A stretch of DNA of 64,000 nt from positions 17,295,648 through 17,359,647 of the forward strand of contig NC_092673.1 in assembly GCF_964355755.1 (NCBI RefSeq). Direction: 5' to 3'. The notes under the pieces were generated by a model. That model had not been told where the DNA came from. It worked only from the letters and a program-made list of their open reading frames with translations, and did no database searches. The translations under genes and the position numbers were made by a program. Below, piece after piece: positions 11,101 to 38,200 of the stretch. The DNA comes from Antedon mediterranea. Its lineage: Eukaryota; Animalia; Echinodermata. Position 1 is the stretch's first letter. Each line of letters starts with the position of its first letter.

Positions 11101-12120
11101 CTTCCCCAGGGCTGTTAGTCAGGGTATTTGTGTGGGGTATTGTACTACCTTACTTTATGATCCATTTATTAATAGACTAAAATGCACTGCTTCCACAAGG
11201 CTGTTAGACAGGGTATTTGTGTGGGGTATTGTACTACCTTACTTTATGATCCATTTATTAATAGATTAAAATGCACTGCTTCCCCAGGGCTGTTAGTCAG
11301 GGTATTTGTGTGGGGTATTGTACTACCTTACTTTATGATCCATTTATTAATAAACTAAAATGCACTGCTTTCCCAGGGCTGTTAGTCAGGGTATTTGTGT
11401 GGGGTATTGTACTACCTTACTTTATGATCCATTTATTAATAGACTAAAATGCACTGCTTCCCCAGGGCTGTTAGTCAGGGTATTTGTGTGGAGTATTGTA
11501 CTACCTTACTTTATGATCCATTTATTAATAGACTAAAATGCACTGCTTCCCCAGGGCTGTTAGTCAAGGGTATTTGTGTGGGGTATTGTACTACCTTACT
11601 TTATGATCCATTTATTAATAGACTAAAATGCACTGCTTCCCCAGGGCTGTTAGTCAGGGTATTTGTGTGGGGTATTGTACTACCTTACTTTATGATCCAT
11701 TTATTAATAGACTAAAATGCACTGCTTCCCCAGGGCTGTTAGTCAGGGTATTTGTGTGGGGTATTGTACTACCTTACTTTATGATACATTTATTAATAGA
11801 CTAAAATGCACTGCTTCCCCAGGGCTGTTAGTCAGGGTATTTGTGTGGGGTATTGTACTACCTTACTTTATGATCCATTTATTAATAGACTAAAATGCAC
11901 TGCTTCCCCAGGGCTGTTAGTCAAGGGTACTTGTGTGGGGTATTGTACTACCTTACTTTATGATCCATTTATTAATAGACTAAAATGCACTGCTTCCCCA
12001 TGGCTGTTAGTCAAGGGTACTTGTGTGGGGTATTGTACTACCTTACTTTATGATCCATTTATTAATAGACTAAAATGCACTGCTTCCCCAAGGCTGTTAG
12101 TCAGGGTATTTGTGTGGGGT
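8200..12120. repeat. 89-bp minisatellite, about 44 copies
   Basis: Unit CTTTATGATCCATTTATTAATAGACTAAAATGCACTGCTTCCCCAGGGCTGTTAGTCAGGGTATTTGTGTGGGGTATTGTACTACCTTA; near-identical copies, no unique spacers. Confidence 0.97.
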
Positions 12121-14520: not shown

Positions 14521-15699
14521 ATGTTAATTATTCGTATGTTCACCAATTTTTTAATTTACAATTAACCCTCTGTACCGTGGGACACCTAAAATAAATATTT
14601 CATACATTACTAAACAAAAAACATGCTATTTTCGCTTAGCCAACAACATCTTATTATAGTTTAGTTATTAAGTTTTTAATGTCCTGTATGTCATGAACTT
14701 CTCACCATACTCAAAGTCCAGATGGTAAGCATACATACTTACGAGGTATACTGATTTTCGCGACTGAAAATGGTCTACGCTTGCGGACACACACCACCCA
14801 CCCACCCCAATTAACCACTTTTTTAAGCCTCTAGGCCCGATGTTTTCAAATTATAAGATGCAATTTTTGAAGACCTGCAGGTCTAGTTTACAAAATTTTC
14901 TTAGGTACTTATAAATTTCATTTCATATTTTGAAGCACAATAAGTGCATTTTCCAGGACCTATAACAGCTCTAATTTTCAAAAATGTCTTAGCTCAGTTC
15001 CTGCCTGTGGGTACGTTTTACATTTGTGTATATTTTCTATGCTACAATATACTCGATAAATATAGGCATATTTTGAACTTTAAAGGTCACTTCATTTTTA
15101 AAATTGAAATGGATTGCCACAGTCATCATTGCGCATCGGTTTTTTGCACGCAGTATTTTATTTATGCATTATGAAAAATGGAAAAAGTGGCTACCCTAAA
15201 TCTGATTAAAATTGCCTCAAATGACGCTAGAACGCGTTGCTTCCGTGGGCTTTGCCCTCTAGACTCCCTGGCGGCCCCCTTGCACCCAGCCTAGAGAGAG
15301 ATTAACAACATTTTTGACCAAATAACTGATATGTTTTTCTGATAGTGATACTCACAATTGCCTAGAGGGATGTTTTTGCTGTTTTTTTGGGGTTTAAAGT
15401 AAAGTGGGCCAAACTGAATGGCAGCCATTTGTTGTGTATTAATTAAAGAAAAGTCATAATTGCCGTTTGGGAAAATGAATCCACAAAACAATGTTTCCAG
15501 TTGTTGATCTGTCAATCAATTATTATGAACAAAATAATTTTTTAAATATTTAAAGATGAGACCATGGCCAGTTTAATATCAACTTGGTGATAAACTTAGA
15601 TTTTACAATCGTACAATGTACACAATAGGCTTTATTTGTTTAACAAGTATAACAGTTTAAAAATCTAAAGTATAATATGTTGTAATGCTAGCACAGGAG

Positions 15700-17070
15700 T
15701 CATCTTCATTCAGTAACGCCAACATACAGGTCATCTTCATGCAGTAACACCAGCATACAGGTCATCTTCATTCAGTAACACCAGCATACAGTTCATCTTC
15801 ATTCAGTAACACCATCATACAGGTCATCTTCATTCAGTAACACCAGCATACAGGTCATCTTTATTCAGTAACACTGGCATACAGGTCATCTTCATTCAGT
15901 AACACCAGCATACAGGTCATCTACATTCAGTAACACCAGCATACAGGTCATCTTCATTCAGTAACACCAGCATACAGGTCATCTCTTCATTCATTAACAC
16001 CAGCATACAGGTCATCTCTTCATTCAGTAACACCAGCATACAGGTCATCTTCATTCAGTAACACCAGCATACAGGTCATCTTCATTCAGTAACACTGGCA
16101 TACAGGTCATCTTCATTCAGTAACACCAGCATACAGGTCATCTTCATTCAGTAACACCAGCATACAGGTCATCTTCATTCAGTAACACCAGCGTACAGGT
16201 CATCTTCATTCAGTAACACCAGCATACAGGTCATCTTCATTTATTAACACCAGCATACAGGTCATCTTCATTCAGTAACACCGGCATACAGGTCATCCTT
16301 TATTCAGTAACACCAGCATACAAGTCATCTTCATTCAGTATACACCAGCAAACAGGTCATCTTCATTCAGTAACGCCAGCATACAGGTCATCTTCATGTA
16401 GTAACACCAGCAAACAGGTCTTCTTCATTCAGTAACGCCAGCATACAGGTCATCTTCATTCAGTAACACTGGCATACAGGTCATCTTCATTCAGTAACAC
16501 TGGCATACAGGTCATCTTCATTCAGTAACACCAGCATACAGGTTATCTACATTCAGTAACACCAGCATACAGGTCATCTTCATTCAGTAACACCAGCATA
16601 CAGGTCATCTTCATTCAGTAACACCAGCATACAGGTCATCTTCATTCATTTACACCAGCATACAGGTCATCTTCATTCAGTAACACCGGCATACAGGTCA
16701 TCTTCATTCAGTAACACCAGCATACAGGTCATCTTCATTCATTTACACCAGCATACAGGTCATCTTCATTCATTAACACCGGCATACAGGTCATCTTCAT
16801 TCAGTAACACCAGCATACAGATCATCTTCATTCAGTAACACCAGAATACAGGTCATCTTCATTCAGTAACACTGACATACAGGTCATCTTCATTCAGTAA
16901 CACCAGCATACAGATTATCTTCATTCAGTAACACCAGAATACAGGTCATCTTCATTCAGTAACACCAGAATACAGGTCATCTTCATTCAGTAATGCCAGC
17001 ATACAGATCATCTTCATTCAGTAACACCAGCATACAGATCATCTTCATTCAGTAATGCCAGCATACAGAT
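15700..17070. repeat. 31-bp minisatellite, about 44 copies
   Basis: Unit TCATCTTCATTCAGTAACACCAGCATACAGG. Confidence 0.96.
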
Positions 17071-17223
17071 GCAATTTAATTGTCGTAGCCTTTAATGCAA
17101 AGGTTTCTGTCTGATTAATTATGTTTTACCTTTCATATTTTCAGAACAGAATGTGTAGGCTTACTTTTACACTAGAAGCTATCAGTATTAATAATTGTTA
17201 AATGAACACACTTTATTTTTGAA

Positions 17224-17231
17224 ATGGAAAG
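17224..17231 (+). CDS. First coding exon portion (exon 17145-17231): ATG GAA AG|
   Basis: Acceptor TTTTCAG ending 17144; gaaATGG context; donor GTACGT at 17232; phase 2 matches the next exon. Confidence 0.65.
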
Positions 17232-20200
17232 GTACGTTTGTTTTTTATTTCAAATCCAACAAAAATAACTGTAACGGTTAAAAACAAATTAAAATGTTTG
17301 AATAGTTAGCAATACTTTAAAACTTTCTTAAAAGATTATGAAATCATAAATATTACAATTAAAGGGCTCATTCTCATCAAATATAATGATTATTTCCATC
17401 AATCATCATTTTCATAATATAATGTAATAATTCATTATTTCTTACATTTTAACAGGAACAAATTAGAAGAAGCTTTGTTGTACACGTGTGATTTGCAAAC
17501 AATTAAACACATTTGTAAGACGCAACCAGATCTTGTGAAATCTATCAATGAGGTATTTAAAACAAGATGTACATTATTTTTATAATATTATCAAATAAGA
17601 AATTTAATTAAAGTTTAAAATTATAGAGATTGTAATTTTCTTTATTATTTATTATAACATTTTTTTATATAATGAATTACAATTATTTTGCAATATCACA
17701 CTAATGATGTTGGTAAGACCTGCATGCACTGATTAACCACATTAGGCTAAAAATAATAATATAAATACACACTGATGATGGGGATAACCTGCATGTACTG
17801 ATTAACCACATTAGGCTAAAAATAATAATATAAATACACACTGATGATGGAGGTATAACCTGCATGTACTGATTAACAACATTATGCTAAAAATAATAAT
17901 ATAAATACACACTGATGATAGGGGTATAACCTGCATGCACTGATTAACCACATTAGGCTAAAAATAATAATATAAATACACACTGATGATGGAGGTATAA
18001 CCTGCATGTACTGATTAACCACTTTAGGCTAAAAATAATAATATAAATACACACTGATGATGGGGGTATAACATGCATGTACTGATTAACAACATTAGGC
18101 TAAAAATAATAATATAAATACACACTGATGATGGGGGTATAACCTGCATGCACTGATTAACAACATTAGGCTAAAAATAATAATATAAATACACACTGAT
18201 GATGGGGGTATAACCTGCATGTACTGATTAACCACATTAGGCTAAAAATAATAATATAAATACACACTGATGATGGGGGTATAACCTGCATGCACTGATT
18301 AACCACATTAGGCTAAAAATAATAATATAAATACACACTGATAATGGGGGTATAACCTGCATGTACTGATTAACCACATTAGGCTAAAAATTATAATATA
18401 AATACACACTGATGGGTATGGCAAGCCTCAGCTGTCTGCAGTATTCGAAATATTATATTATTATATCATTTTCACGCTACATCACAAGAGAGGACTCAAT
18501 CAGATATAAAGCAAGCAGCAATTTTAGGACTGAGAGACTGACGTTTTGCTAAAATGCATACTCGACTATAGTTTATAGGTCCCAGCTGCTGGACCCAAAA
18601 AACGTCTGGGAAAAGTGTCTATGAGGGCTCACGGTTGAACGATTTTGGATTCTTGCCCTTTGATTGGTTGACTTCAAGGCAAATGGTTTAACCTAAATTT
18701 GTTATCGTATCTAGCTTAACTTAATTATGATATTAATTTCATTGGGTGTTAAAAATCAGTACCAAAAGTATGTACCAACTTTCTCTTCCATTGAGTATAA
18801 ATTCTAGAAGTTGCACTTAATTTACTGAAATTTCTCATTACTTATATGTAAATTCATTAAACTGCTTATTGGCCTCATATTGTTAACATCTAAACATTTG
18901 TTTGTACAATTTTATGAAATATGTATTTTATTAATGTTCAAATTTTGTGATTGATATTGTACAGTAAGTAGATTTTAATGATTACTTACATTAAGTAATA
19001 GGCTAACAATCACTAGATCTGATCCATGGTAATATATTATATTTTGTTTTCATTTTATCAATAATGATAATTAGGATTTTATCACATTATTTAGCAGTAA
19101 TTGTTGTTGTTTGTATTTACAAAAAAAACCAATTTTACATAATGTCTGTTGTCAGTATTTATAAACTTCATTATGATTCCTTTCCAGAATGGGAACACGC
19201 CATTACATTCATATCTGGGGAGTGTATATACACCTACCTTAGAAATAGTGACATGTCTCATTCAGCATGGGACACCAGTAGCATTGCAAAATAAGGTAAT
19301 GTACAGGGATTTGCTAGTGTAATAGGCTAATATTCTAAAGATATGCTGTGGTAGACCATTCTATTTTGTTATACTCATTTATCAATAATGATAATTAGGA
19401 TTTTATCACATTATTTAGCAGTAATTGTTGTTGTTTGTATTAACAAAAAAACCCAATTTCACATAATGTCTGTTGTCAGTATTTATAAAACTTCATTATG
19501 ATTCCTTTCCAGGATGGTGAGACTCCATTACATTCATATCTGGGGAGTCTAAGCCTATATCCACTTCCCTTAGAAATAGTGACGTGTCTCATTCAGCATG
19601 GGGCACCATTAGCATTGCAAAATAAGGTAATGTACAGGGATTTGCTAGTGTAATAGGCTAACATTCTATAGATCTACTGAAGTAAACCATTCAATGAGAG
19701 AAAAAAGTAAGCACATTAACAAAAATCAAATTTGATTAAAACAAACCAAATAAAAAAATAACTAAATAGTTATATATGATTTATGATAACTGATTTAAAG
19801 TGTACAGCTACCTATCATATAACATAAATCTTTAATTTTCTTAATGAACAATTTTTTTTATATATTCAGTTATTAATAAACAATTATTGACAATGGTCTA
19901 ATTAATTGTAAATATGAAATAAAATGCGACAACTACTAAACAACTAAAAATGTTTATGTTAAAAAAATTAATAGAATCTGATTTTAATAAAAAATAATTA
20001 TTAATTAATAACCTACTCCCTCCCTTACCTTACAAAAAATGCTTCTGTCAGTCTATCCAGCTAATTATAAACATGGCCTTAAACTGCATCTGGAGATCTT
20101 TTTCCAACCTAGGATATTTTTGTGCAAACATTTTGCCACAAAAGGAAGAGAAATGTAAATAATATTTAGCCTTTAGTTAGTGGTTTCCAAAATTTAAAAT

Positions 20201-23200
20201 GTTTGAGCAATGCAATTTAAAAAAGAAAGCTAATATGAAATTATTCTGTTCAAACTGAATGCTTTAAGAACAGTTCCGTCTCTTATCTTATGACTTTTCG
20301 GGGAAAAATGACATTATTAAAGTTGCTATATAAAATTTGATACTAGTAAGTGTCAATAGATGGTTCTTAAATACATGACCTTTGATAAATAACTGAAAAT
20401 TGCACTGTACACAAGGCAAATAAATACAGATATGATGGAATTTATGTAGTCAAATATAATTTTCATCCTGAGAATTACCTTAATTTTGTTTATTGCATGG
20501 CATTGTTCACCAAATTCCTGTCTTGGTACAATTGATGATGGGATGGTATAAGGCTTCATGATATGATATGATCTTCATCGAGGCAAATGATAAATTTGTT
20601 TTGATCGTCAATATAGTACACTGGTTTTCATTAGGTGTTAAAAATTAGTACCGAAAGTATGTACCAACTTTCTCTACCATTGGGTTAAAATTCTAGAAGT
20701 TGAACTTAATTTACAGAAATTTCCCATTACGTAAATTTATATATAAATTCATTAAACTGCTTTGTGGCCTCATATTTTTAATATCTAAACATTTGTTTGT
20801 ACAATTTTATGAAATATTTATTTTATAACGTTCAAATTTTGTGATTGATATTGTACAGTAAGTAGATTTTAATGATTACTTACATTAAGTAATAGGCTAA
20901 CAATCACTAGATCTGATCCATGGTAATATATTATATTTTGTTTTCATTTATCAATAATGATAATTAGGATTTTATCACATTATTTAGCAGTAATTGTTGT
21001 TGTTTATATTAACAAAAAACCCAATTTTACATAATGTCTGTTGTCAGTATTTATAAACTTCATTATGATTCCTTTCCAGGATGGTGAGACTCCATTACAT
21101 TCATATCTGAGGAATGTATATAGAATACATAGCTTAGAAATAGTGACTTGTCTCATTCAGCATGGGACACCAGTAGCATTGCAAAATAAGGTAATGTACA
21201 GGAATTTGCTAGTGTAATAATAAGCTAACATTATATAGATATGCTGAAGTAAACCATTCTATGAGAGAAAAAAGTAAGCACATTAACAAAAATCAAATTT
21301 GATTAAAACAAACCAAATAAAAAAATAACTAAATAGTTATATATGATTTATGATAACTGATTTAAAGTGTACAGTTACCTATCATATAACATAAATCTTT
21401 AATTTTCTTAATGAACAAAAAAATCTATTTTTTTTTATATATTCAGTTATTAAATAACAATTATTGTCAACGGTCTAATTAATTGTAAATATGACGTAAA
21501 TACTAAACAAATAAAAATATTTATGTTAAAAAAATTAATAGAATCTGATTTTAATAAAAAATAATTATTAATTAATAACCTACTCCCTCCCTTACCTTAC
21601 AAAAAATGCTTCAGTCAGTGTATCCAGCTAATTATAAACATGGCCTTAAACTACATCTGGAGATCTTTTTCCAACCTAGGATCTTTTTATGCAAATATTT
21701 TGCCACAAAAGGAAGAGAAATGTAAATAATGTTTAGCCTTTTAGTTAGTGGTTTCCAAAATTTAAAATGTTTGAGCAATGCAATTTAAAAAAGAAAGCTA
21801 ATATGAAATTATTCTTTTCAAACTGAATGCTTTAAGAACAGTTCCGTCTCTTATCTTGTGACTTGTTGGGGAAAAATGACATTATTAAAGTTGCTATATA
21901 AAATGTGATACTAGTAGTGCCAATAGATGCTCCTTAAATACATGACCTTTGGTAAATAACTGAAAATTGTTTAAGTACAAAGCAAATAAATACATATATG
22001 TTGGAATTTATGTTGTCAAATATAATTGTCATCCTGAGAATTAACTTAATTTTGTTCATTACATGTTATTGTTCACCAAATTCCTGTCTTGGTACATTTT
22101 ATTATGAGATGGTATCAGACTTCATGATATGATTTTCATTAAGGCAAATGGTTTAAACTAAACTTGTTATCGTTAATATCGAACTTAGCCTAATTATGAT
22201 ATTGATTTCATTGGGTGTTAAAAATCAGTACCGAAAGTATTTACCAACTTTCTCTACCATTGAGTATAAATTCTAGAAGTTGCACTTAATTTACTGAAAT
22301 TTCCCATTACCTAAATTTATATGTAAATTCATTAAACTGCTTATTGGTCTCATATTGTTAACATCTAAACATGTATTTGTACAATTTTATGAAATATGTA
22401 TTTTATTAATGTTCAAATTTTGTGATTGATATTGTACAGTAAGTCGATTTTAATGATTACTTACATTAAGTAATAGGCTAACAATCACTAGATCTGATCC
22501 ATGGTAATATATTATATTTTGTTTTCATTTTATCAATAATGATAATTAGGATTTTATCACATTATTTTGCAGTAATTGTTGTTGTTTGTATTTACAAAAA
22601 AAAAACAATTTCACATAATGTCTGTTGTCAGTATTTATAAACTTCATTATGATTCCTTTCCAGTCTGGTGACACTCTATTACATTCATATCTGGGGAGTG
22701 GATATAAACCTACCTTAGAAATAGTGACGTGTCTCATTCAGCATGGGGTACCATTAGCATTGGAAAATAAGGTAAATGTACAGGAATTTGCTAGTGTAAT
22801 AGGCTAACATTATATAGATATGCTGAAGTAAACCATTCAATGAGAGAAAAAAGTAAGCACATTAACAAAAATCAAATTTGATTAAAACAAACCAAATAAA
22901 AATAGTTATATATGATTTATGATAACTGATTTAAAGTGTACAGTTACCTATCATATAACATAAATCTTTAATAATAATAAATGAAAACTTATATAGCGCC
23001 GGTATCCTCCACCCATGTGGCGCTCATGGCGCTTTGTGCATTAACAACGTGCGAGAACATCAGCGAATAGCGACGTCTTTAGGTTGGTCTTGAAACTGTT
23101 TAGACTAGTTGAGCATTTAACTGTTGCTGGTAAGCTGTTCCATACACTTGCGGCCGCAACGAAAAAAGATCTCTGACCCCACTGATTTTTCGCTCTACGC

Positions 23201-26200
23201 TCTTGAAGAAGGTTTTGTGACAATGATCGTAGGCCTCTGCGGGATGATTCGTAACGATCCACAAGGTCAGATAAATAAGCAGGAGCACTGTCATTTAGGA
23301 TCTTGAATACAAACAACGCAAGTTTGTACTTAATACGTTGTTGAACAGGCAACCAATGCAAATCCATCAGGACAGGAGTTATGTGAGCGTTTGATTTTGT
23401 ATAAGTTACAATTCTAGCTGCCATATTTTGCAAGCGCTGCAAACGTTGTATTTGAGATTTTGGTATGCCAAACAACAAGGCATTACCAATGTCAATTTTA
23501 GAAGTGACAAATGAGTGTACAATCAATTCAGCTGTTTTCTTGTTAAGATTACCGCGAATACGACCAAGGTTCCTAATCGATATGCATGCTGCTTTGGATA
23601 CAGTTGTTATTTGTGCTTCCATAGTGAGATTACTATCCAGCATGATTCCCAGATTCCGGACCACCGATGAGGGAGCGATGTTAGAGTTTCCGATTCTGAA
23701 ATGTGTGATGTTGATTTTGGAGATGTTACCTTTAGACCCGACGATAATAAACTCTGTCTTTCCATCATTCAACTTTAGGTAATTTGTTGTCATCCAATTG
23801 CGAACATCTTCTATACAGGCTTCCATCTTACTGATTGCTGCAGCAACATCCCTTTCCACTGGATTTACTGACACATAAATCTGTGTATCATCTGCATAGA
23901 AATGGAAATGTAGACTGTGTTTGCGAATAATGTCACCAAGGGGAAGCGTATAAATGGAAAACTGGCCAGGACCAATTACTGACCCCTGTGGTACACCATA
24001 TTCCAGGCAAGCTTCATCTGAGAATGCATCATTGATACAGACTAGCTGACGTCTTCCTGTAAGATATGACTGGAACCAGTTAAGAGCAACACCATTTATG
24101 CCAATGCGATTTCTCAGACGGGTTATCAGTCTTCGGTGATCAACTGTATCAAACGCTGCTGACAAATCCAACAACACCAATAGCGTTATTTTCCCATCAT
24201 TCATTCCTTGTAACAAATCATTCTGTACCTTTAAAAGGGAACTCTCCGTGCTATGACATGCACGATATGCCGACTGGTAATTCTCATTTAAATTATGCTT
24301 TTGAAGATATGGAGTAATGCGTGATGTCACTACACGCTCCAGAGTCTTTCCAAGAAAAGAAAGATTCGACACCGGGCGGTAATTTTTCAGCGTGTTATGA
24401 TCCAAGTTTTGCTTTTTTATTAAAGGACGAACGTGAGCAATTTTCAGTTCATCTGGCACTATGCCGGTATTAAGAGAATGGTTAATGATTTCCGTTATTA
24501 TTGGAACGACTGCGTCTATACACTTCTTCAGTATAGAAGTAGGAACTGGATCTAACCTGCATGATTTTGTTGGTGATTTCATCAGAATGTTGCGGATCTC
24601 ATCTTGAGATGCTGGTGTAAATGTTGTGAGATGCTGATGAACAGCTGTCACAGGCTCATTAAATGACATGTCATCAATCTTGAAGTCGTCTCTGATGAAA
24701 AACTGACAGAACCTGTTCGCAAGATCTAAGTCAGAAAGACTATCTGAGAGAGGTGATACCTGGCGATGATGAAGGAGTTGGTTAACAATTTTAAAAAGTC
24801 CTTTCTGATCTGCTGCATGTTCTTCACACAAGCCAATGTAGTAGTTGGCCTTTGCCTTTCTTACCATGGAATTTACATTCCTCTTCTGTGCAATGTAAGC
24901 TTGACGATCTATTTCCAGATGAGAGATTCTCCATTTCTTTTCAAGCTTACGCTTTGTTCTTTTCTCAGCATAGATGTCACTGTTATACCAACTAGTGTTT
25001 GGTCGGACCTTTACTGTTCTCTTTTTCGGTGGTGCGTGTTTGTCAAGAAGTTCACTCAAAGTGGTGACATATAGTCGTACTTTACTTGATAAATCAAGAT
25101 TTGAGAGCGAAGTTCCGAGATCAGACTGTGTGATATCTTTACATAATGTCTCAAAATTTATAGCATTCCAATGACGAGTTTCGATGGATTTAGTGATTAC
25201 GGGTGGCTTCTTGATAAGGAGATTACATGTGATTGCATAGTGATCTGATATACCATCAATGACATTAAGGTTTGAGAAAACAGGAGGATCAGATGAACGA
25301 GTGATCAGCAAGTCTAATGTATGACCATGTCGGTGTGTAGGTGTAGACACATGCTGTTGAAGACTGCTTGCTGCAAGTAGATTCCGAAAATGAATTGCAT
25401 CTGCATCATTTGGCATATCCACATGGATGTTAAAGTCTCCAACGAATAGTATGGGAGCCGGCTTCAATACATAGTGATCAACCAAAGTTGAGAATTCTTC
25501 AGTGAAAACATTTAGACTGCAACCCGTTGATTTGCTTTGAGGACGATATACTGCTACGAGGAAAACTGAGGATGCATTGCTGACTATTTCCACATTTAGC
25601 AGTTCAAATGATTTTGGTAATAATCCCGTGTCATAACATTTAACCGCTATGCTTTCCTTGTAAAGAAGTGCAACTCCACCACCTCTTTTAGTACTAGCAC
25701 GGGGAGCATGTTTGAGAGAGTATCCGTTGGGTGTAATATTTCCTATAACTGATGTGTCTTCTGGTTTAAGCCACGTTTCCGAAAGGGCAACAACATCCAG
25801 ATTATGTTCGATAACGAAATCCACAAATTCTGTTGTTTTGTTCCGAACGGATCTTGTATTAATACAGCAAAATGTAATATTGTTTTTAGATAAGAGAGAG
25901 TTTGATGATAAGTCCGGAAATGATAGATTGTTTTTAGTGTGTTTGTTTGTTTGTTTGTCACGCCCAGCTCTTGTACCACGCCTGGTTTTTCTTTTTGGCC
26001 TCCTTGGTAATAGGTGGATACTACAGCTACTGGAGTTCAACTTAAAAGATTGTATAATTAAGCAAGATTCTTCAGGAAGTTCACAACTGTTATTGTTGTT
26101 GGTTACACAGCCCTGTAAACCATGAAGAAACTCAGAGCTATAGCTAATTAGCATGACAACAGCAGATCTTCAAGCATGAGGTGTACAAGGTCATTTACAT

Positions 26201-29200
26201 AACAATATGCACAGTCAGATTGAAAGTACAGGGCTAGCTTCCCACTGATGCTAGTAGACCATTGTTCTTGGGCAGTGATGAGTTTGAATTAAAACAATAA
26301 AGGCACAAGCAGGGCCTAGCTGAACTTCAGGAAACAACAAGAAAAACAACTGCGATTTACTCCAAGATACGATTATTTCCACATAAGAAATTTGTGAATA
26401 TATGGTGCTCAATTTGCTATTCCAGCATCCAGTAAAACTTATTTGATGAAAAAAACCATCTGCAAACAGATACGAAGTTGTTATGCACAGAGCAATATAG
26501 AGCCGCCACATGGGCGCTGCAACACTCCTCCTCTTATTTAAGTTTCTTAATGAACAAAAAAATCTATATTTTTTTATATATTCAGTTATTAAATAACAAT
26601 TATTGACAATGGTCTAATTAATTGTAAATATGAAATAAAATGCGACAACTACTAAAGAACTAAAAATGTTTATGTTAAAAAATTAATAGAATCTGATTTT
26701 AATAAAAAATGATTATTAATTAATAATGTGCTCCTTCCCTTATCTTACAAAAAAAATGCTTCTGTCAGTCTATCCAGCTAATTATGAACATGGCCTTAAA
26801 GAAATCCTTTTCCAACCTAGGATCTTTTTGTGCAAACATTTTGCCACAAAATGAAGAGAAATGTAAACAATGGTTTGTTAGTTTTCAAAATCTAAATTGT
26901 TTAAGTAATGCAATTTAAAAAAGAAAGGTAATATGAAATTATTCTTTTCAAACTGAATGCTTTTAAGAAAAGTTCCGTCTCTTATCTTATGACTTTTTTG
27001 GAAAAATGATTAAAATTAAAATATAATATACTAGTAAGTGCTCACAGATGCTTCTCGAATTCATGAACTTTGGTAAATAACGGAAAATTGCACTGTACAC
27101 AAAGCAATACAGATATGATGGAATTTATGTAGTCAAATATAATTGTCATCCTGAGAATTACCTTAATTTTGTTTATTGCATGGTATTGTTCACCAAATTC
27201 CTGTCTTGGTACATTTGATGATGGGATGGTATCAGACTTCATGATATGATATGATCTTCATCGAGGCAAATGATAAATTTGTTTTGATCGTCAATATAGT
27301 ACACTGGTTTTCATTTGGTGTTAAAAATTAGTACCGAAAGTATGTACCAACTTTCTCTACCATTGGGTTAAAATTCTAGAAGTTGAACTTAATTTACAGA
27401 AATTTCCCATTACGTAAATTTATATATAAATTCATTAAACTGCTTTGTGGCCTCATATTTTTAATATCTGAACATTTGTTTGTACAATTTTATGAAATAT
27501 TTATTTTATAACGTTCAAATTTTGTGATTGATATTGTACAGTAAGTAGATTTTAATGATTATTTACATTAAGTAATAGGCTAACAATCACTACCTGTAGA
27601 TCTGATCCATGGTAATTATATTTCGTTTTCATTTATTAATAATGATAATTAGGATTTTATCACATTATTTAGCAGTAATTGTTGTTGTTTATATTAACAA
27701 AAAACCCAATTTCACATAATGTCTGTTTTCAGTATTTATAAACATCATGATTATGATTCCTTTCCAGAATGATGACACTCTATTACATTCATATCTGAGT
27801 AGTGTATATCCACCTACCTTAGAAATAGTGACGTGTCTCATTCAGCATGGGACACAAGTAGCGTTGCAAAATAAGGTAAATGTACAGGGATTTGCTAGTG
27901 TAATAGGCTAACATTATATAGATATGCTGAAGTAAACCATTCAATGAGAGAAAAAAGTAACCACATTAACAAAAATCAAATTTGATTAAAACAAACCAAA
28001 TAAAAAAATAACTAAATAGTTATATATGATTTATGATAACTGATTTAAAGTGTACAAATCTTTAAGTTTCTTAATGAACAAAAAAATCTATTTTTGTTTA
28101 TATATTCAGTTATTAAATAACAATTATTGACAATGGTCTAATTAATTGTAAATATGAAATAAAATGGGACAACTACTAAACAACTAAAAATGTTTAGGTT
28201 AAAAAAATTAATAGAATCTGATTTTAATAAAAAAATAATTATTAATTAAAAACCTGCTCCCTCCCTTACCTTACAAAAAATGCTTCTGTCAGTCTATCCA
28301 GCTAATTATAAACATGGCATTAAACTACATCTGGAGATCCGTTTCCAACCTAGGATCTTTTTGTGCAAACATTTTGCCACAAAATGAAGAGAAATGTAAA
28401 CAATGTTTTGTTAGTTTTCAAAATCTAAATTGTGTGAGTAATGCAATTTAAAAAAGAAAGGTAATATGAAATTATTCTTTTCGAACTGAATGCTTTTAAG
28501 AAAAGTTCCGTCTCTTATCTTATGACTTTTTTTGAAAAATGAATTCTCGTTAAAATATAATATACTAGTAAGTGCTCACAGATGCTTTTTGAATACATAA
28601 ACTTTGGTAAATAACTGAAAATTATACTGTACACAAGGCAAATAAATACAGATATGATGGAGATCTGATCCATGGTAATATATTATATTTTGTTTTCATT
28701 TATCAATAATGATAATTAGGATTTTATCACATTATTTAGCAGTAATTGTTGTTGTTTGTATTAACAAAAAAACCCAATTTCACATATGTCTGTTGTCAGT
28801 TTATAAACTTCATGATTATGATTCCTTTTCAGGATGGTGACACCAGATCTGATCTATGTTAAGATATTCTATTTTGTTCTCATTTATCAATAGTTAACAA
28901 TTAGGATTATTTACCACATTATTTAGCAGCAAAAAACAATTTCACATAATGTTTGTTGTCATTATTTATAAACTCCATTATGATTCCTTTCCAGTATGGT
29001 GACACTCCATTACATCCATATCTGAGGAGTGGATATACTGCACCTACCTTAGAAATAGTGACGTGTCTCATTCAGCATGGGGCACCAGTAGCATTGAAAA
29101 ATAAGGTAAAGGGATTTGCTAGTGTAATAAGCTAACATTATATAGATCTGCTGAAGTAAACCATTTAATGAGAGAAAAAAGTAAGCACATTAACAAAAAT

Positions 29201-32200
29201 CAAATTTGATTAAAACAAACCAAATAAAAAAATAACTAAATAGTTATATATGATTTATGATAACTGATTTAAAGTCTACAGTTACCTATCATATAACATA
29301 AATCTTTAATTTTCTTAATGAACAAAAATATCTGTTTTTTTTATATATTCAGTTATTAATTAACAATTATTGACAATGGTCTAATTAATTGTAAATATGA
29401 AATAAAATGCGACAACTACTAAACAACTAAAAAATGTTTATGTTAAAAAAATTAATAAAATCTGATTTTAATAAAAAATGATTATTAATTAAAAACCTGC
29501 TCCCTCCCTTACCTTACAAAAAATCAGTCTATCCAGCTAATTATGAACATGGCCTTAAAGAAATCCTTTTCCAGCCTAGGATCTTTTTGTGCAAACATTT
29601 GCCACAAAATGAAGAGAAATGTACACAATGTTTTGTTAGTTTTCAAAATCTAAATTGTTTGAGTAATGCAATTTAAAAAAGAAAGGTAATATGAAATTAT
29701 TCTTTTCAAACTGAATGCTTTTAAGAAAAGTTCCGTCTTTTATCTTATGACTTGTTTGAAAAAATTAATTCTTGTTAAAATATAATATACTAGTAAGTGC
29801 TCACAGATGTTTCTCGAATGCAGGCCCGTATCCAGGGGGGTGCGTTGGGTGCAGACGCACCCCCCCCCCCCAAGTCCCAAAAGGTCCACTATTTCCTCGG
29901 TTGGTATTTTTTCTTGTCTTGTTTAACTAAAGACAATATCATTATATATATACAAAATTTACATTATCAATTTTATACAAACAAAAATATGTTAATATAA
30001 AATGAAAAAATACGGTAATTAAATTACGGAATCTGAAATGACTACAAACTTGATGTAAAACATGCGCAGTCGATCATGTGACGACAAGCAATAGCTTAGC
30101 GCTTCATGTACGCGGCGGTACGCGGTAAAGTGTTTGCTGGAAATAAATACAGACAACCGGCGGTAAAGATAGGTAGCTGCTGCCAAGCTCATATCTTATA
30201 ACACTACGCGCCCAGTAAATCATCCATGGACGCCATTCGGGCGGACAGGTTATTTAAATTGTGATTTAAATGTAAATGGTTTAAATTTTGCGGTCCGCCT
30301 CGAAGTATCTGTGGTTAACCATCTTGATGAATGATTCATGGAAAAGGGAAGAAATTATGTACACAAAGTAAAATAAAAGTTTCTTTGGGATCTGGACACT
30401 TTCCGATTAATTCTGTGTGTTTACATTGATATGTTTGGTTAGACAACTTCGTTCTTTAACCGAAACATCGTGGATATTGCCTTGACAACGAATTTATTCC
30501 GGTTCAAATTTGTCCGCCGGAATGGCGTCCATGGATTACAAAGGTCTCACCCAGTTACCTATCTTGTGCCGCGTAGCGGCGCTATAGTATCTTTGGTGTC
30601 TGGAAATACAGACACTATCGAATACGGCGCCTAAACATGGGAAGGAAGGCCAACTCAGACAGCGGCGTACGACGCTGTCTGAGTTGTCCTTTAAACATCA
30701 TGAAAGCGTTAAGTTCTGGTGTCCATCGTTCAGCTAGCCCAAGCCACAACAAAGAGTCTTAAATCAGTCTTTAGAACGTCAAATAACGCAAATTTTACCG
30801 GGGCCTTCGGCCCCTGGACCCTGCCCGGCGGCCCCCTGGCCCCCAGCCATTGTTACTCGCTTCGCTTGCACCGCCCCCCCCCCCACCATTATAAATGCTG
30901 CATACGGGCCTGGAATACATGAACTTTGGTAAATAACTGAAAATTGCATTGTACACAAGGCAAACATATACAGATATGATGGAATTTATGTATTCAAATA
31001 TAATTGTCATCCTGAGAATTACCTTAATTTTGTTTATTGCGTGGTATTGTTCACCAAATTCCTGTCTTGGTATATTTGATGATGGGATTGTATTAGGCTT
31101 CATGATATGATTTTCATTGAGGCAATATGGTTTAAACTAAATTTGTTATCGTTAATATCTAAATTAGCTTAATTATGACATTGGTTTCATTGGGTGTTAA
31201 AAATCAGTACTGAAAGTATGTACCAACTTTCTCTACCATTGAGTATAAATTCTAGAAGTTGCACTTAATTTACTGATATTTCCCATTACCTAAATTTATA
31301 TGTAAATTCATTTAACTGCTTATTGGCCTCATATTGTTAACATCTAAACATTTGTTTGTACAATTTTATAAAATATGTATTAAATTATTAATGTTCAAAT
31401 TTTGTGATTGATATTGTACAGTAAGTAGATTTTAATGATTACTTACATTAAGTAATAGGCTAACAATCACTAGATCTGATCCATGGTAATATATTATATT
31501 TTGTTTTCATTTATCAATAATGATAATTAGGATTTTATCACATTATTTAGCAGTAATTGTTGTTGTTTATATTAACAAAAAACCCAATTTTACATAATGT
31601 CTGTTGTCAGTATTTATAAACTTCATTATGATTCCTTTCCAGGATGGTGAGACTCCATTACATTCATATCTGAGGAATGTATATAGAATACATAGCTTAG
31701 AAATAGTGACTTGTCTCATTCAGCATGGGACACCAGTAGCATTGCAAAATAAGGTAATGTACAGGAATTTGCTAGTGTAATAATAAGCTAACATTATATA
31801 GATATGCTGAAGTAAACCATTCTATGAGAGAAAAAAGTAAGCACATTAACAAAAATCAAATTTGATTAAAACAAACCAAATAAAAAAATAACTAAATAGT
31901 TATATATGATTTATGATAACTGATTTAAAGTGTACAGTTACCTATCATATAACATAAATCTTTAATTTTCTTAATGAACAATCAATTTTTTTAGTATATT
32001 CAGTTATTAATTAACAATTATTGACAACGGTCTAATTAATTGTAAATATGAAATAAAATGCGACAACTACTAAACAACTAAAAATATTTATGTTAAAAAA
32101 ATTAATAGAATCTGATTTTAATAAAAAAAACGATTATTAATTAATAATGTGCTCCTTCCCTTATCTTACAAAAAAAATGCTTCTGTCAGTCTATCCAGCT

Positions 32201-35200
32201 AATTATGAAAATGGCCTTAAAGAAATCCTTTTCCAACCTAGGATCTTTTTGTGCAAACATTTTGCCACAAAAGGAAGAGAAATGTAAACAATGTTTTGTT
32301 AGTTTTCAAAATCTAAATTGTTTGAGTAATGCAATTTAAAAAAGAAAGGTAATATGAAATTATTCTTTTCAAACTGAATGCTTTTAAGAAAAGTTCCGTC
32401 TCTTATCTTATGGCGTTGCCATTTACCTACACCAGAGATTTAAATATATTCTTCGCCCTGATTTATCATTTATCATTACTAATGGTTCGGAATCTCTTTT
32501 CATTGAAATCGATGCACAACCCAAAAACATAATCCTTGGAGTAGTATATCGTTTGCCTGAATTATCCATTAACACATTTAATAAAGATATCTCTAATTTA
32601 ATTGACACCATTAATAATGAGAAAAAAACAGCATATATTTCAGGAGACTTTAATATTAACTTGTTAAATTCCAAAAAACATAAAGGTACTTCTGATTTTG
32701 TTAATACTTTATTTCAATCAAATTATTATCCTCTTATTACTAGGCCAACTAGAATTACGCGTAATTCTGCAACTTTAATCGACAATATTTTTTGTAATAA
32801 TCTATATGATAACATTTCTTCCGGAATTCTATATTCGGACATCTCGGATCACTTTCCTGTTTTCTTGTTAGTACATAAATCAGAACCTCTCCAACACCTG
32901 AAACCTAAATCAAAATATATATACATAAAAAAAGTCAATGATATTTCAATTTCTGCCTTAAGTAATGATTTGTCAAATGTTGACTGGACTAGTATTTATA
33001 ACTCCAATGAACCCAATGAGGCATACGCTTTATTCAACGACATATTTAGTACATTATATAATAACAACATTAAAACCACTCGTTCCAGACGCAATATTCG
33101 GAAAGAAAAAAAACCTTGGATAACTAAATGCTTAATTAAATCTATCGACAAAAAACACAAATTATATAAAACATTTCTTATATCTAAAAAGCAAAAGGAC
33201 AAAGATAAATATGTTAAATATCGAAATGTACTTACCAGAATCCTTCGTACTGCCCAAAAGAATTACTTCAGTGACAAATTTGAATTCCATAAAAATAACA
33301 TCCAAAAAACCTGGCAAACAATAAATGGAGTCCTTGGCAAGAAATCTCGTAAACCGTTTCCTTCTCACTTTATTAACAATGACATTGAATTAAATAATCC
33401 TCAACAAATTGCAACTGAATTCAATAATTATTTTACTAGTATAGGGCCAAATTTAGTTAATAAAATACATGTGTCGGATAATGATAATTATACTTCTACC
33501 CTACCTCGTCCATGTGTGCACTCTCTCTTTCTTAGTCCTGTAACCGAACATGAAGTTGTCAGTATAATACTTTCCCTCAAAGATAATAAATCTCCTGGGT
33601 TTGATGGGTTTTCCAATAAAATTATTAAACGTGTTTCTAATTTTATATGCAAACCCTTAACTCACATTTTTAATACTTCTTTTCAAACCGGTATTTTTCC
33701 TGATTCTTTTAAAATAGCTAAAGTCATCCCTATCTACAAGAAAGAAGATCCTCATCATTTCAATAACTACAGACCAATCTCCCTACTTCCTTGTTTCTCA
33801 AAATTAATTGAAAAAATAATGCATAATCGAATTTCTTCCTTTTTAACTAAACATAACATTTTATTTAAAGGCCAATATGGTTTCAGGAAAAAGTATTCAA
33901 CAGATCTTGCTTTATTAGATATTTTTGACAAAATTACAATTGCCCTGAGTAAAAATGAGTTTTCTGTTGGCATTTTCCTTGATTTATCTAAGGCCTTCGA
34001 TACTATTAACCACGATATTTTAATTCATAAACTTTCAAATTACGGTATCAGAGGCCTTCCTTTAAAACTAATTAAAAGCTACCTTTCCAATCGTGTTCAG
34101 TTTACTTCCTTAAATAATTTTAACTCTTCCTATTCCCGTTTAACCTGTGGTGTTCCCCAAGGATCGATTCTTGGACCACTCTTATTCCTGATTTTTGTTA
34201 ACGATATACCAAACAGCTCTAAATTACTAAATTTTATCTTATTTGCTGACGACACAAATATTTTTTTCTCTCATCCTAAATTAAATACCTTGTTTAAAAT
34301 TGTCAATGATGAGTTACTTAAAGTTTCAAATTGGCTCAAACACAATAAATTAACTCTTAATACATTCAAAACGAACTATATAATATTTTCTAAACGTAAA
34401 ATTTCAAATTCTTTAAATGAACAAATATACATTGATAATAAAATGATCAAACGAGTTAATGAAACCCAATTTTTAGGAGTAACCATAGATGCCTCTCTGA
34501 CTTGGAAACTACATATAAATAAAATCAGTAATCTAGTTTCTAGAAATGTTGGAATATTGAACAAATTAAAACATATCTTCCCTCAAAAAACCTTATTAAC
34601 CCTTTATAATACTTTAGTTTTGCCTTACCTTTCTTATGCCAATTTATGTTGGGCAATTACTCTAGATAAATTTAATACGTTATGCCCCTGGACAAGTCTA
34701 GAGAAAACTCAAATTGACCGCCTTTTTAAACTACAAAAACGTGCACTTCGGATTTGCGCGGGAGAATCATTTAGAGCCCATACAAAATTACTTTTTAAAA
34801 GATTTAACGTTTTAAACATTTATGATTTAAATAAATTACAAGTTGCCTCATTTATGTACCGTTTATCTAACAATTTACTGCCTTCACATTTTAATGCTTT
34901 ATTTACAAGAATTGACGAACGCCATTCCTATAAAACCCGATCCTCTGTTAACAATTATATCCTTGATAATTTAAATGTTAAGGCTCGACGATTTTCTATG
35001 TATTATTTTGGTCCCAAACTTTGGACTTCACTCTCAAATGAACTTAAACAGAAATCTTCCTTTTCTAGTTTTAAATCTAATTTCAAACACAAAATGGTGT
35101 CAGAATATGCTACATAAATTTTCGCCGATCTTTTATCCTTATTTATTTGGTGGTGATACATGGCATTAAATCCTTCACCCTGGTATTCAATAATCTCCGC

Positions 35201-38200
35201 TACATTGTATCGTTATACTTGTTATTATACCATATTTAATTATATTTCATATTGTACTCTAATTGTTATCATTATCCCTTTTATCATATATTATATAATT
35301 GCCTGGTTTATCTTAACTTCTATAATTTAAATTTTTTTTATTTCTTTATTTTATGTACTTTCACTATTATATATTTATATTTTAGTCTACTCTGTAGCAA
35401 TGTTAGTATACTTAGGCATACGGGAGTCACGACTTAAAGTTCAGTGAACTTACTGTGACTTCCATCCACCCACATTTAATATATGTTATGTTATGTAAAT
35501 GTAAATGATATATATATATATATATATATAAGTGAGTGGAAAAAATAAATAAACGAAACGAAACGAAACTTTTTTGGAAAAATGATTTCTCGCTAAAATA
35601 TAATATACTAGTAAGTGCTCACAGATGCTTCTTGAATACAAGAACTTTGGTAAATAACTGAAAATTGCACTGTACACAAAGCAATACAGATATGATGGAA
35701 TTTATGTAGTCAAATATAATTGTCATCCTGAGAATTACCTTAATTTTGTTTATTGCATGGTATTGTTCACCAAATTCCTGTCTTGGTACATTTGATGATG
35801 GGATGGTATCAGGCTTCATGATATGATATGATTTTCATTAAGGCAAATGGTTTAAACTAAATTTGTTATCGTTAATATCTAAATTAGCTTAATTATGATA
35901 TTGGTTTCATTGGGTGTTAAAAATCAGTACTGAAAGTATGTACCAACTTTCTCTACCATTGAGTATAAATTCTAGAAGTTGCACTTAATTTACTGAAATT
36001 TCCCATTACCTAAATTTATATGTAAATTCATTATACTGCTTATTGGCCTCATATTGTTAACATCTAAACATTTGTTTGTACAATTTTATGAAATATGTAT
36101 TTTATTAATGTTTACATTTTGTGATTGATATTGTACAGTAAGTAGATTTTAATGATTACTTACATTAAGTAATAGGTTAACAATTACTAGATCTGATCCA
36201 TGGTAATATATTATATTTGTTCTCATTTATCAATAGTTAACAATTAGGATTATTTACCACATTATTTACAGCAGCAAAAAACAAACAATTCACATAATGT
36301 CTGTTGTCAGTATTTATAAACTTCATTATGATTCCTTTTCAGTCTGGTGACACTCCATTACATTCATATCTGAGGAGTGGATACGCTACCTTATCAATAG
36401 TGACGTGTCTCATTCAGCATGGGTCACAAGTAGCATTGCAAAAAAAGGTAAATGTACAGGGATTTGCTAGTGTAATAGGCTAACATTCTTTAGATCTGCT
36501 GAAGTAAACAATTCAATGAGAGAAAAAAGTAAGCACATTAACAAAAATCAAATTTGATGTAAACAAACCAAATAAAAAAATAACTAAATAGTTTATATGA
36601 TTTATGATAACAAACAAATTTAAAGTATACAGTTACCTATCACATAACATACATCTTTACTTTTTATATGTTCAGGTGAATCAGTATAATTTTGTTTACA
36701 TATTTTTGACCGTAAAACAAATATAAATTGCTCCTATGTAGCTGTAAAGATAGCAACGATTGACAATGGTCTAATTAATTGTAAATATGAAATAAAATGG
36801 AACAACTACATTGACTAATAATAAAACAACAAATAAAAAAATGTATGTTAAAAAAATTAATAGAATCTAATTTTAATAAAAATAATTATTAATGAATAAC
36901 CTGCTCCCTCCCTTAATTTACCTTACAAAAAAATGCTTCTGTACATCTACCCAGCTAATTATGAATATGGCCTTAATTAAAGAGATCCTTTTCCAACCTA
37001 GGATCTTTTTTTTCAATTATTCTTTTCAAACAGTCCCGTATCTTTTGTGGAAAAATGATTCTATAAAGTTGCTAGTTAAAATTGAATATACTAGTATTAA
37101 GTGCCCACAAATGGTTCTCGAATATATAAACTTTGAGAAATAACTAAAAATTGTCCAAGTCACACTGTACACAAAGCAAATGAATACAGATATGTTGGAA
37201 TTTATGTAGTCAAATATAATTGTCATCCTGAGAATTACCTTAATTTTGTTTATTACATGGTATTGTTCACCAAATTCCTGTCTTGGTACATTTGATGATG
37301 GGATGGTATCAGGCTTCATGATATGATATGGTTCTCAAAACTACTAATAACTAAACCTATTTTTTTAATAGGATGGAAATACACCTGTCTCTCTTTTAGA
37401 AAGTAACAGGCTGATAAGTGACCAAAGAAAAACTGAAATTTTAAACTTCTTAGAAGGTAAGTGAAGTTTTAATTATTCAAATTCTAGGATCAACTAGTTT
37501 CATTGCAAACGATAAAAATTTTACTTCTCGTCCCAAGTGAAGAAGAATGTCCAGATAAAAAAAATTAACATTTATGATATATCATTCACAGGTTTATTAT
37601 AGATTATATAATTCAGTGGGATAGTAGTATACATGGAAGTTGTGATATGTTGCAAGATGTAAAAACCTAATTTTTTATGATTTGAAAATTGCAAATAAAT
37701 TCGAAAAAATATTTTGCCATTAATACGATAAAAATAACACAAAAACGCAAACTTTAAAATTCCTTAGAAATAAAAATATTAAATAAATCATTTTTCAAAT
37801 CAAATCAATCTCTTTATTCAATACATCAAAACAGTACACATAACAAAAATAAAGAGATTTTAATGATGATGATGATTTTAAGATGAAAGGGACCTTCAAT
37901 AAACCCCAAGGGGCTTTTGATAGGAGGCTTTACTTTAAACTAGTTACAATAACCTGACGGGGGACATGCATTGTTAATGAATATTTGAACTTTATTAATT
38001 GCACATAAATGTAAATGTAGATTTTTTTTTCTTTTTAATGTAATCTATTTTATATATAATGCTATGTACAATTGGTATTCGCATTCAAGGCAAACAATTT
38101 ACGATAGGAGGAGATAAATATTGAATATAAAAATCTAATTTTCTTGTTAAATCCCTGTTTTTGCTTCCACAATGGATGAATTTCCTTCACACATTTTAAA

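Follow-up and report, generated by a model that had tools for sequence, protein, structure and literature searches.

Here, we present an analysis of an array of eight ankyrin-repeat (ANK) exons in the feather star Antedon mediterranea, located in a 64-kb stretch of contig NC_092673.1 (the window). In its DNA, the array bears the marks of recent copying and mixing. Our data argue that it is probably the variable binding head of an ANK/DED ROCO-related protein, that unequal crossing-over and gene conversion are likely the main sources of its variants, and that the main transcript likely contains all eight repeats, with an occasional skip of a single exon. The diversity of the array is likely mostly genomic.

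RESULTS

The eight ANK exons are encoded on the forward strand, each with GT-AG borders, phase 0/0, a length of 105 to 114 nt and one ankyrin repeat: A1 (19188-19295; 108 nt, 36 aa), A2 (19513-19626; 114 nt, 38 aa), A3 (21080-21190; 111 nt, 37 aa), A4 (22664-22771; 108 nt, 36 aa), A5 (27768-27875; 108 nt, 36 aa), A6 (28995-29105; 111 nt, 37 aa), A7 (31643-31753; 111 nt) and A8 (36343-36447; 105 nt, 35 aa). A3 and A7 are identical at 111/111 nt. A single N-cap exon (17456-17552, forward strand, phase 2/0) and a single C-cap exon (37372-37456, forward strand, phase 0/1) flank the array, and the interval 17553-37371, to which a first-pass annotation had assigned it, is thus the intron span between the caps. 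The nine introns between the two caps all have GT-AG borders and range from 217 to 4996 nt; the ANK acceptors are near-identical (ATTATGATTCCTTTC/TCAG), and the donors read AAG/GTAATG, GTAAAT or GTAAAG. Upstream, a likely first coding exon (17145-17231, forward strand; GT-AG, open frame), in which 8 nt from the ATG at 17224 are coding and the exit phase is 2, gives the same N-terminus as in P0015, P0019 and P0022. The intron after the N-cap contains a 71-bp minisatellite of ∼10 copies (17692-18414; self-BLAST).

The first-pass annotation had described eight symmetric phase-0 exons with almost identical splice sites between single caps, and A3 as equal to A7; our analysis agrees on each point. 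It had also stated that any subset of the exons splices in frame, giving 256 subsets but fewer distinct products, and we computed 248 distinct proteins. Because a single exon-plus-intron unit was duplicated in tandem, its copies have a common phase and splice sites and can be joined in any subset, so that this property does not speak for alternative splicing. Symmetric exons, of phase 1/1, are also found among the downstream exons of the gene model (8 of 14).

The Pfam Ank profile (PF00023) matched six of the seven distinct exons scanned over nearly its whole length, with E values from 7e-5 to 0.03, and the curated cut-off was passed by A6 only. A5 alone had no Pfam match; its identity to A2 is 67 to 78%, in line with the other exons. 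In a profile scan of both caps, neither matched Pfam Ank. The N-cap is 66 to 85% identical to the N-termini of four A. mediterranea proteins, and the C-cap is 82% identical to that of P0016. For the paralog P0022, whose caps are 82% and 43% identical to those of the window, the predicted fold of N-cap, two repeats and C-cap reached a pLDDT of 92.7 and superposed over its full length on N2C-sized DARPins (TM 0.77 to 0.84). This modeled head supports the labels N-cap and C-cap.

The tandem exon-plus-intron units are ∼1.55 kb long. With insertions removed, five of the seven intervals measure 1540 to 1584 nt, while two are deleted to 325 nt (A1 to A2, the unit being internally deleted) and 1227 nt. 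The units are 85 to 90% identical to the A3 unit, and the nearest neighbor of each switches along its length, indicating mosaic ancestry. A 589-bp tract on the forward strand (20830-21418) is identical to 31393-31981, and the two copies are centered on A3 and A7; the outer flanks beyond the tract differ at 18/371 and 26/362 positions. Judged from the sequence, the tract is likely the product of a recent gene conversion. Three transposon insertions are present in the array, all with approximate ends: a LINE retrotransposon on the reverse strand in the A4-A5 intron (22973-26536), with an endonuclease and RT frame open from 23044 to 26169; a 1.09-kb non-coding insertion in the A6-A7 intron (29823-30909), which is likely a non-autonomous transposon; and a LINE retrotransposon on the forward strand in the A7-A8 intron (32413-35567), with an RT frame at 32388-35114. 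The 1.09-kb insertion had high depth in DNA sequencing runs, contig depth not being taken as a measure of copy number or expression. The array also contains a broken ninth ANK exon (28833-28844, forward strand), which consists of an orphan acceptor and 12 nt of exon with no donor; if the acceptor at 28833 were used as an alternative for A6, a stop would follow at codon 10. This orphan acceptor had been overlooked in the first-pass annotation.

Variation among the repeats clusters at the end of helix 1 and in the loop. The loop is 6 to 9 codons long, all indels are in frame, none of the eight exons has a stop, and the 24 distinct repeats of the window and its relatives have 22 distinct loops. 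Two loop variants that the window lacks were found in sequencing run X1, which is probably RNA, and one of these also in the DNA run X2. Among the runs that matched the DED-like exon described below, none is labeled as RNA. Of the six positions equivalent to DARPin binding positions, five are varied, compared with 8 of the remaining 25 (p 0.034, one-sided Fisher test), using DARPin position numbers that we take to be correct. With the indel-bearing loop codons excluded from every codon test, omega was about 1.9 (LRT p 0.13) and the distinct variants comprised 27.5 nonsynonymous versus 5.5 synonymous changes (p 0.27); positive selection on the repeats is thus suggested by these values and not significant. 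Pairwise distance, with pairs that are not independent, was 0.101 in exons versus 0.041 and 0.035 in adjacent flanks, and distal introns (0.057 to 0.089) came near the exon value. A7 was dropped from the flank and codon comparisons, and A1 also for the downstream flanks. Polymorphic columns amounted to 19/93 in exons versus 28/193 in flanks (p 0.23, not significant), and the idea that the exons clearly diverge faster than the introns fails this test.

Downstream of the C-cap, we identified eight putative linker exons on the forward strand (44685-54526), which have GT-AG borders and one open frame (44685-44703, 45130-45599, 46825-46869, 47019-47129, 47346-47438, 48555-48579, 53001-53032 and 54482-54526). 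The second carries an 18-nt coding repeat for Ser/Gly/Ala/Val. They are followed by a DED-like exon (55164-55703, forward strand; 540 nt, phase 1/1) that likely encodes tandem death effector domains: It is 91% identical to P0001, shows similarity to the DED region in P0042 (E 2.5e-4) and matches Pfam DED with an E value of 0.0011, which is below the cut-off, while its single-sequence fold (pLDDT 37) was uninformative. Five further linker exons on the forward strand with GT-AG borders and an open frame (56642-56704, 57017-57130, 57352-57450, 60482-60506 and 61210-61241) are mostly a duplicate of 46825-53032. The resulting model has 25 exons and 926 open codons, of which residues 621 to 926 match P0001 at 87%; we infer the join from the C-cap to the linker and DED exons. 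Because there is no stop by 61241, the gene likely extends past the window. By tblastn, the 64-kb window has no match to the ROC-COR of the relatives, the frame being still open at 61241.

A. mediterranea proteins that contain ROC-COR have counterparts of the caps, repeats, linkers and DED exon, and P0042 and P0183 are annotated as ANK-ROC-COR-DED. Relatives in A. mediterranea that share the caps and/or the repeat type lie on at least five contigs (22 to 41 Mb) and carry 2 to 11 motif-matched repeats. The closest 3' end is that of P0016, which has an A6-like repeat, an A8-like repeat (its last, near-identical to A8) and the C-cap. These similarities indicate that the gene belongs to an expanded crinoid family of ANK-(ROC-COR)-tandem-DED, ROCO-related proteins. 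In the open-access literature, with few subscription journals covered, we found no paper on an ANK-ROCO-DED family or on the skipping of one-repeat ankyrin exons. The first-pass annotation lacked both this family and the stronger signal, namely that the cassettes have been shuffled and converted in the DNA.

DISCUSSION

We suggest that the identical flanks of the units would promote mispairing, by which whole cassettes may be gained, lost or overwritten with the frame intact. With a fixed framework, any repeat could stack on any other between the caps, as in a DARPin library. DEDs recruit caspase-8/FADD-type partners. The window gene is a probable immune sensor; its ligand would probably be microbial and, once bound, would bring the DEDs together, so that such a partner is recruited. 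Equal splice sites would let nearest-neighbor pairing dominate.

It is possible, and in our opinion unlikely, that combinatorial skipping is a main source of diversity, with many of the 248 combinations made at useful levels, stochastically or upon challenge, on top of genomic shuffling. Two RefSeq isoforms of an A. mediterranea paralog (XP_071957837.1 and XP_071957838.1) differ by one 36-aa repeat at a cassette boundary; however, this is the only paralog with such a pair, 9 of the 10 clusters checked were single-member, and isoforms of gene models can stem from the alleles of the donors or from mis-mapped reads. No YTRAY branch motif lies within 60 nt of any of the eight ANK acceptors and none of the eight donors has a G at +5, while the C-cap has both; however, of the other 17 real exons in the gene model, 7 have no +5G either. 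Run X1 contains five types of spliced repeat-to-repeat junctions, in which five different exon starts follow a single type of exon 3' end. Four of these starts are absent from the window and explicable by alleles or paralogs. The fifth junction leads into A8 and matches A7-A8 exactly; A1 in its final 42 nt and A3 in the final 60 nt tested are identical to A7, so that this junction is inseparable from A1-A8 and A3-A8. For the window gene, these junctions are compatible with skipping, alleles or paralogs alike. Read contigs were compared for 18420-30900 and 22400-37600, both of which exclude the N-cap. For 18420-30900, which is rich in transposon matches, 15 of 49 joints from four runs were listed and included no exon-exon splice; for 22400-37600, 15 of 17 joints from run X1 were listed and included none into the C-cap, which is not evidence of absence. 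As for precedents, the accessible parts of the respective papers describe skipping for brown-algal ROCO LRR exons (PMC11378527) and for human NLRP3 (PMC6642158); however, the equally modular NLRP3 has just two major isoforms (PMC6642158). Accordingly, of the earlier suggestion that exon skipping is possible, what stands is that it would be in frame and has a parallel in the isoforms of a paralog, whereas run X1 is ambiguous for this gene.

A second alternative, which we consider quite unlikely, is that the gene arose in a cluster prone to recombination and is young, under loose constraint or in decay, i.e., an ANK head that has lost ROC-COR, drifts and has no role as a receptor. Its closest relatives P0016 and P0022 run from the C-cap into ROC, which the window lacks, omega is indistinguishable from 1, and the array carries the three insertions and the broken exon. 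Many annotated relatives are fragments. However, all eight exons keep the frame, splice sites and framework residues, with 18 alignment columns invariant, the chain of 25 exons is open, spliced ANK junctions are present in run X1, and a long ANK array with a C-cap is also found in P0192, for which Pfam gave no ROC match.

That the A7 part of the array is an assembly artifact, e.g., a duplicated or haplotype-mixed unit, is highly improbable. A3 and A7 are identical, P0016 has no A7-like repeat ahead of its A8-like repeat, and no read contig in the two stretches compared spans the array; however, the identity is confined to the 589 bp, the flanks beyond it differ by 5 to 7% and resemble other units, and different insertions lie on each side of A7.

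Finally, the Dscam-like diversity named as possible in the first-pass annotation, taken here as Dscam1-type mutual exclusion with one cassette per transcript between the caps, has near-identical cassettes, matching splice sites, constant flanking exons and one of 12 docking comparisons (reached by 3 of 100 shuffles) in its favor but is almost certainly wrong and already largely refuted by the repeat-to-repeat junctions of run X1, as the related annotated proteins hold several repeats in tandem, the shortest intron (217 nt) and the in-frame joining of any exon pair leave no steric exclusion or frame penalty for double inclusion, and, as had been noted earlier, there are no recognizable docking/selector elements, with no exon-tied inverted repeat among the 25 longest of 443, the other 11 docking comparisons reached by at least 7 of 100 shuffles and all four flank-to-flank tests at chance. 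The scoring used simple stems without cross-species conservation, and short docking elements could therefore be missed.

Diversified invertebrate immune receptors are mostly built from LRR, Ig or lectin domains; for crinoids, the gene and its relatives suggest a repertoire based on ankyrin repeats. In arthropod Dscam1, one exon is picked per cluster via RNA pairing. The feather-star array has in common with Dscam1 the tandem-duplicated similar exons between constant exons; unlike in Dscam1, its repeats are joined to one another by splicing, and the searches described above gave no docking element. With four uncharacterized ANK-ROC-COR-DED proteins of A. mediterranea (XP_071964198.1, XP_071947615.1, XP_071948802.1 and XP_071948758.1), the gene shares the N-cap, repeat type, C-cap, linkers and DED exon, while repeat numbers and loops differ and these proteins carry the ROC-COR that the window lacks.

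Brown-algal ROCO proteins, as described in the accessible parts of two reports (PMC3341825, PMC11378527), have N-terminal LRRs encoded one per exon of 72 nt in phase 2. To the extent covered there, both systems have symmetric exons that each encode one repeat in the N-terminal part of a ROCO family protein, traces of intragenic recombination, broken exon remnants, repeat numbers that vary among paralogs, varied residues on the likely binding face and annotated skip isoforms in some members. In the feather star, however, the repeat is an ankyrin repeat of 105 to 114 nt in phase 0 with a length-variable loop, the host is an animal, whole 1.55-kb units are duplicated, a likely DED is present, ROC-COR is absent from the window and selection is not significant. 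Intact repeat exons on the opposite strand of introns, a trait of the algal genes, had no ANK counterpart on the minus strand of the window by tblastn with 10 relatives. In NLRP3, exon 5 can be skipped and, as in vertebrate NLRs generally, the LRR exons are modular (PMC6642158, accessible part); fixed-border modular repeat exons that permit in-frame skipping and a death-fold domain, a likely one in the feather star, are common to both, whereas the NLRP3 exons are old and hold two LRRs each, and the feather-star exons encode single ankyrin repeats, which are 86 to 100% identical and still recombining, with no NACHT. As in DARPin libraries, in the available portions of PMC8683736, PMC8229355 and PMC6590788, self-compatible repeats with a variable surface lie between an N-cap and a C-cap, although the feather-star array is natural and its repeats, of 35 to 38 aa, have an extra variable inter-helix loop.

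We speculate, with considerable doubt, that the crinoid ANK-ROCO-DED family is a natural DARPin library, the cassettes of which undergo both reshuffling in the genome and combinatorial skipping in the transcript. If so, each animal, perhaps each cell, would couple a large set of binding surfaces to a death-fold output, and a deuterostome would have converged on the receptor diversification of the brown-algal ROCO-LRR proteins with another repeat. Given the small size of the array, a single cap-to-cap amplicon and a phased genome would make the shares of DNA shuffling and splicing measurable. Altogether, the feather-star array is an animal, ankyrin-based counterpart of the shuffling of LRR exons in brown-algal ROCO genes, and the occurrence of the two types of arrays on the same GTPase family suggests convergence.

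Results

The eight ankyrin-repeat (ANK) exons A1-A8 (19188-36447) are 105-114 nt long, contain whole codons, and lie between single N-cap (17456-17552) and C-cap (37372-37456) exons. Their acceptors are almost identical, their donors read AAG/GTAA, and all nine introns from N-cap to C-cap have GT-AG borders. This anatomy agrees with the first-pass annotation, which had also expected fewer than 256 distinct products from the 256 possible exon subsets; because A3 and A7 are identical in sequence, we obtained 248 different proteins. That annotation overlooked a further acceptor, the ninth, at 28833; only 12 nt of exon follow it, without a donor, and its use for A6 would lead to a stop. Pfam Ank was matched by six of the seven distinct ANK exons, and Pfam matched neither cap exon. 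In a paralog that shares these caps, the head has a high-confidence predicted fold; in this predicted structure, it superposes over its length on designed ankyrin-repeat proteins (DARPins) with two internal repeats.

An open chain of 25 GT-AG exons extends from the ATG at 17224 to 61241 (926 codons) and comprises the N-cap, eight repeats, C-cap (probably joined to the linker exons), low-complexity linkers, a 540-nt exon that weakly matches the death effector domain (DED), and the linker exons once more. The duplicated block of four linker exons flanks the DED exon (46993-53055 and 56994-61264; ~85% identical over the first kilobase). For one exon of the first copy, the original acceptor is apparently gone and an AG 3 nt downstream (47019) used instead. 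Like the array, the C-terminal half is assembled by module duplication. The exon at 45130-45599 (470 nt) is mostly an 18-nt coding repeat (~20 units matched) encoding a Ser/Gly/Ala/Val linker; in the related proteins P0042, P0183, P0018, and P0192, a similar location holds a low-complexity repeat, different in each.

Searching with the DED exon, we found 13 proteins, all from Antedon mediterranea and on one 36.2-Mb contig (top match, 91% identical); Roc or COR domains are listed for nine. A repeat-profile search retrieved A. mediterranea proteins that share both caps and the repeat type with this gene. P0042 has the architecture ANK x8-ROC-COR-linker-DED, and P0016, with the closest C-cap (82%), continues into ROC. 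P0022 (XP_071947615.1) is annotated as ANK x2-ROC-COR-ROC-COR, either because it is a genuine double ROCO or because its gene model is fused. Related ROC-COR proteins are present in the crinoid Anneissia japonica. None was found within the 64-kb window, and the ROC-COR of this gene is either lost or located beyond the window's end. Ankyrin and Roc are also listed together in dozens of ENA proteins of 1100-2900 aa, including P0187 and P0195-P0197, which represent another large ANK-Roc expansion.

Without three insertions (two LINEs and a 1.09-kb element), the array consists of tandem units of ~1.55 kb, each an exon plus intron; identity to the A3 unit is 85-90%, and deletions have shortened two units. 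The common phase and splice sites of the ANK exons are therefore inherited; only symmetric exons survive such tandem duplication in frame. Symmetric exons also occur downstream (8/14). The closest relative of each unit shifts along the unit's length, and a 589-bp tract around A3 and A7 matches exactly while the outer flanks differ by 5-7%; judged from sequence, this is the pattern that unequal crossing-over and gene conversion would leave. Motif-matched repeats number 2 to 11 in 12 of the 16 relatives counted and 0 or 1 in the remaining four, and in P0016 no A7-like repeat separates the A6-like from the A8-like one. Two loop variants absent from the window are present in run X1 (presumed RNA), one of them also in DNA run X2.

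Alignment of the repeats leaves 18 columns invariant. Differences fall at residues 1 and 3, at the helix-1 end, and in the loop after it, which spans 6-9 codons and has only in-frame indels. Among 24 distinct repeats from the window and its relatives, 22 different loops occur. In the paralog model, the variable region comprises the helix-1 end and the inter-helix loop. Using what we take to be the DARPin position numbers, the positions equivalent to randomised sites are variable in five of six cases vs 8 of 25 others (p 0.034). Randomisation of six surface positions is described in the DARPin accounts consulted (PMC8683736, PMC8229355, PMC6590788). Tests for positive selection lend it little formal support: pooled pN/pS is 2.0 (non-independent pairs), the variant count test gives p 0.27, and omega is ~1.9 (LRT p 0.13). 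Pairwise distance is higher in exons (0.101) than in adjacent flanks (0.041 and 0.035), with little excess over distal intron; by polymorphic columns, the excess over adjacent flanks is not significant (p 0.23).

Three LINE frames (1132-4068 and 23044-26169, minus strand; 32388-35114, plus strand) encode endonuclease and RT domains over 909-1042 codons without stops and probably inserted recently; the 3' fragment of a LINE is located at 43498-44076. Six mutually unrelated minisatellites occur in and around this one gene, with periods of ~89 bp (8197-12122), ~31 bp (15677-17068), ~71 bp (17692-18414), ~69 bp (42985-43293), 65-66 bp (49227-52964), and ~88 bp (53200-54432). A ~190-bp element in the ANK units (e.g., 22143-22325, 31117-31304, and 35842-36024) is 72-80% identical to an upstream copy (6859-7057); it was already part of the ancestral unit and multiplied along with that unit, and because its bins show raised read depth, it is likely an old transposon. 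A short plus-strand frame (5459-5779), within the region of a 65-bp inverted repeat (5259-5322/6110-6174), presumably resembles the N-terminus of a Harbinger-type transposase.

Discussion

We consider it probable that the array encodes the variable head of a sensor or adaptor acting inside the cell. The repertoire of this protein would be produced chiefly in the genome, with the full eight-repeat array as the main transcript and occasional skipping.

Substantial combinatorial skipping is doubtful. Skipping as such has some support: a paralog has two RefSeq isoforms, one of them longer by precisely one 36-aa repeat, with the difference at a cassette border, although isoform models of this kind can mirror donor alleles. 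Moreover, all eight cassettes lack the +5G donor and a nearby YTRAY, both present at the C-cap; however, +5G is also absent from 7 of 17 other exons. In X1, five repeat-to-repeat junction types start from an A7-type end. In one of them, the A7-A8 intron is excised precisely (GT..AG; short side, 21 nt), which demonstrates splicing of such cassettes at the predicted sites; this junction is indistinguishable from an A1-A8 or A3-A8 skip because the ends are identical over at least 42 nt. In the remaining four, the exon starts joined to this end are absent from the window, and alleles or paralogs therefore fit as well as skipping. Among the X1 joints listed, from a stretch beginning 3' of the N-cap, none involves the C-cap. 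At 37421, in the C-cap exon, one X1 contig has a one-base deletion (depth 48 of 162), which may represent a paralog or allele that is either frameshifted or compensated.

That the locus is a drifting fragment is unlikely, and an assembly artefact is very unlikely. The first-pass annotation raised Dscam-like isoform diversity, but mutual exclusion of the Dscam type is hardly tenable: 11 of 12 docking comparisons (the other reached 3/100 shuffles) and all four flank-to-flank tests were at chance, in line with that annotation's failure to identify docking or selector elements; the longest inverted repeats were weak AT-rich matches or inside a transposon, none exon-linked; and the shortest intron is 217 nt.

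The brown-algal ROCO family offers the closest parallel: according to the portions consulted, arrays recombine, a single 72-nt exon encodes each LRR, and the isoforms of some genes differ in LRR content (PMC3341825, PMC11378527). The NLRP3 account consulted indicates that modular repeat exons can yield just two main isoforms (PMC6642158). ANK-ROCO proteins are recorded in oomycetes and a green alga in the part of PMC11378527 consulted. Search listings of open-access literature yielded no paper on the crinoid family, nor any on receptors of this sort with shuffled ankyrin exons. Domain content and the brown-algal ROCO and NLRP3 precedents lead us to infer a possible immune role with DED signaling. 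The crinoid gene, a putative ROCO with its ROC-COR absent from the window, probably operates like the brown-algal ROCO genes.
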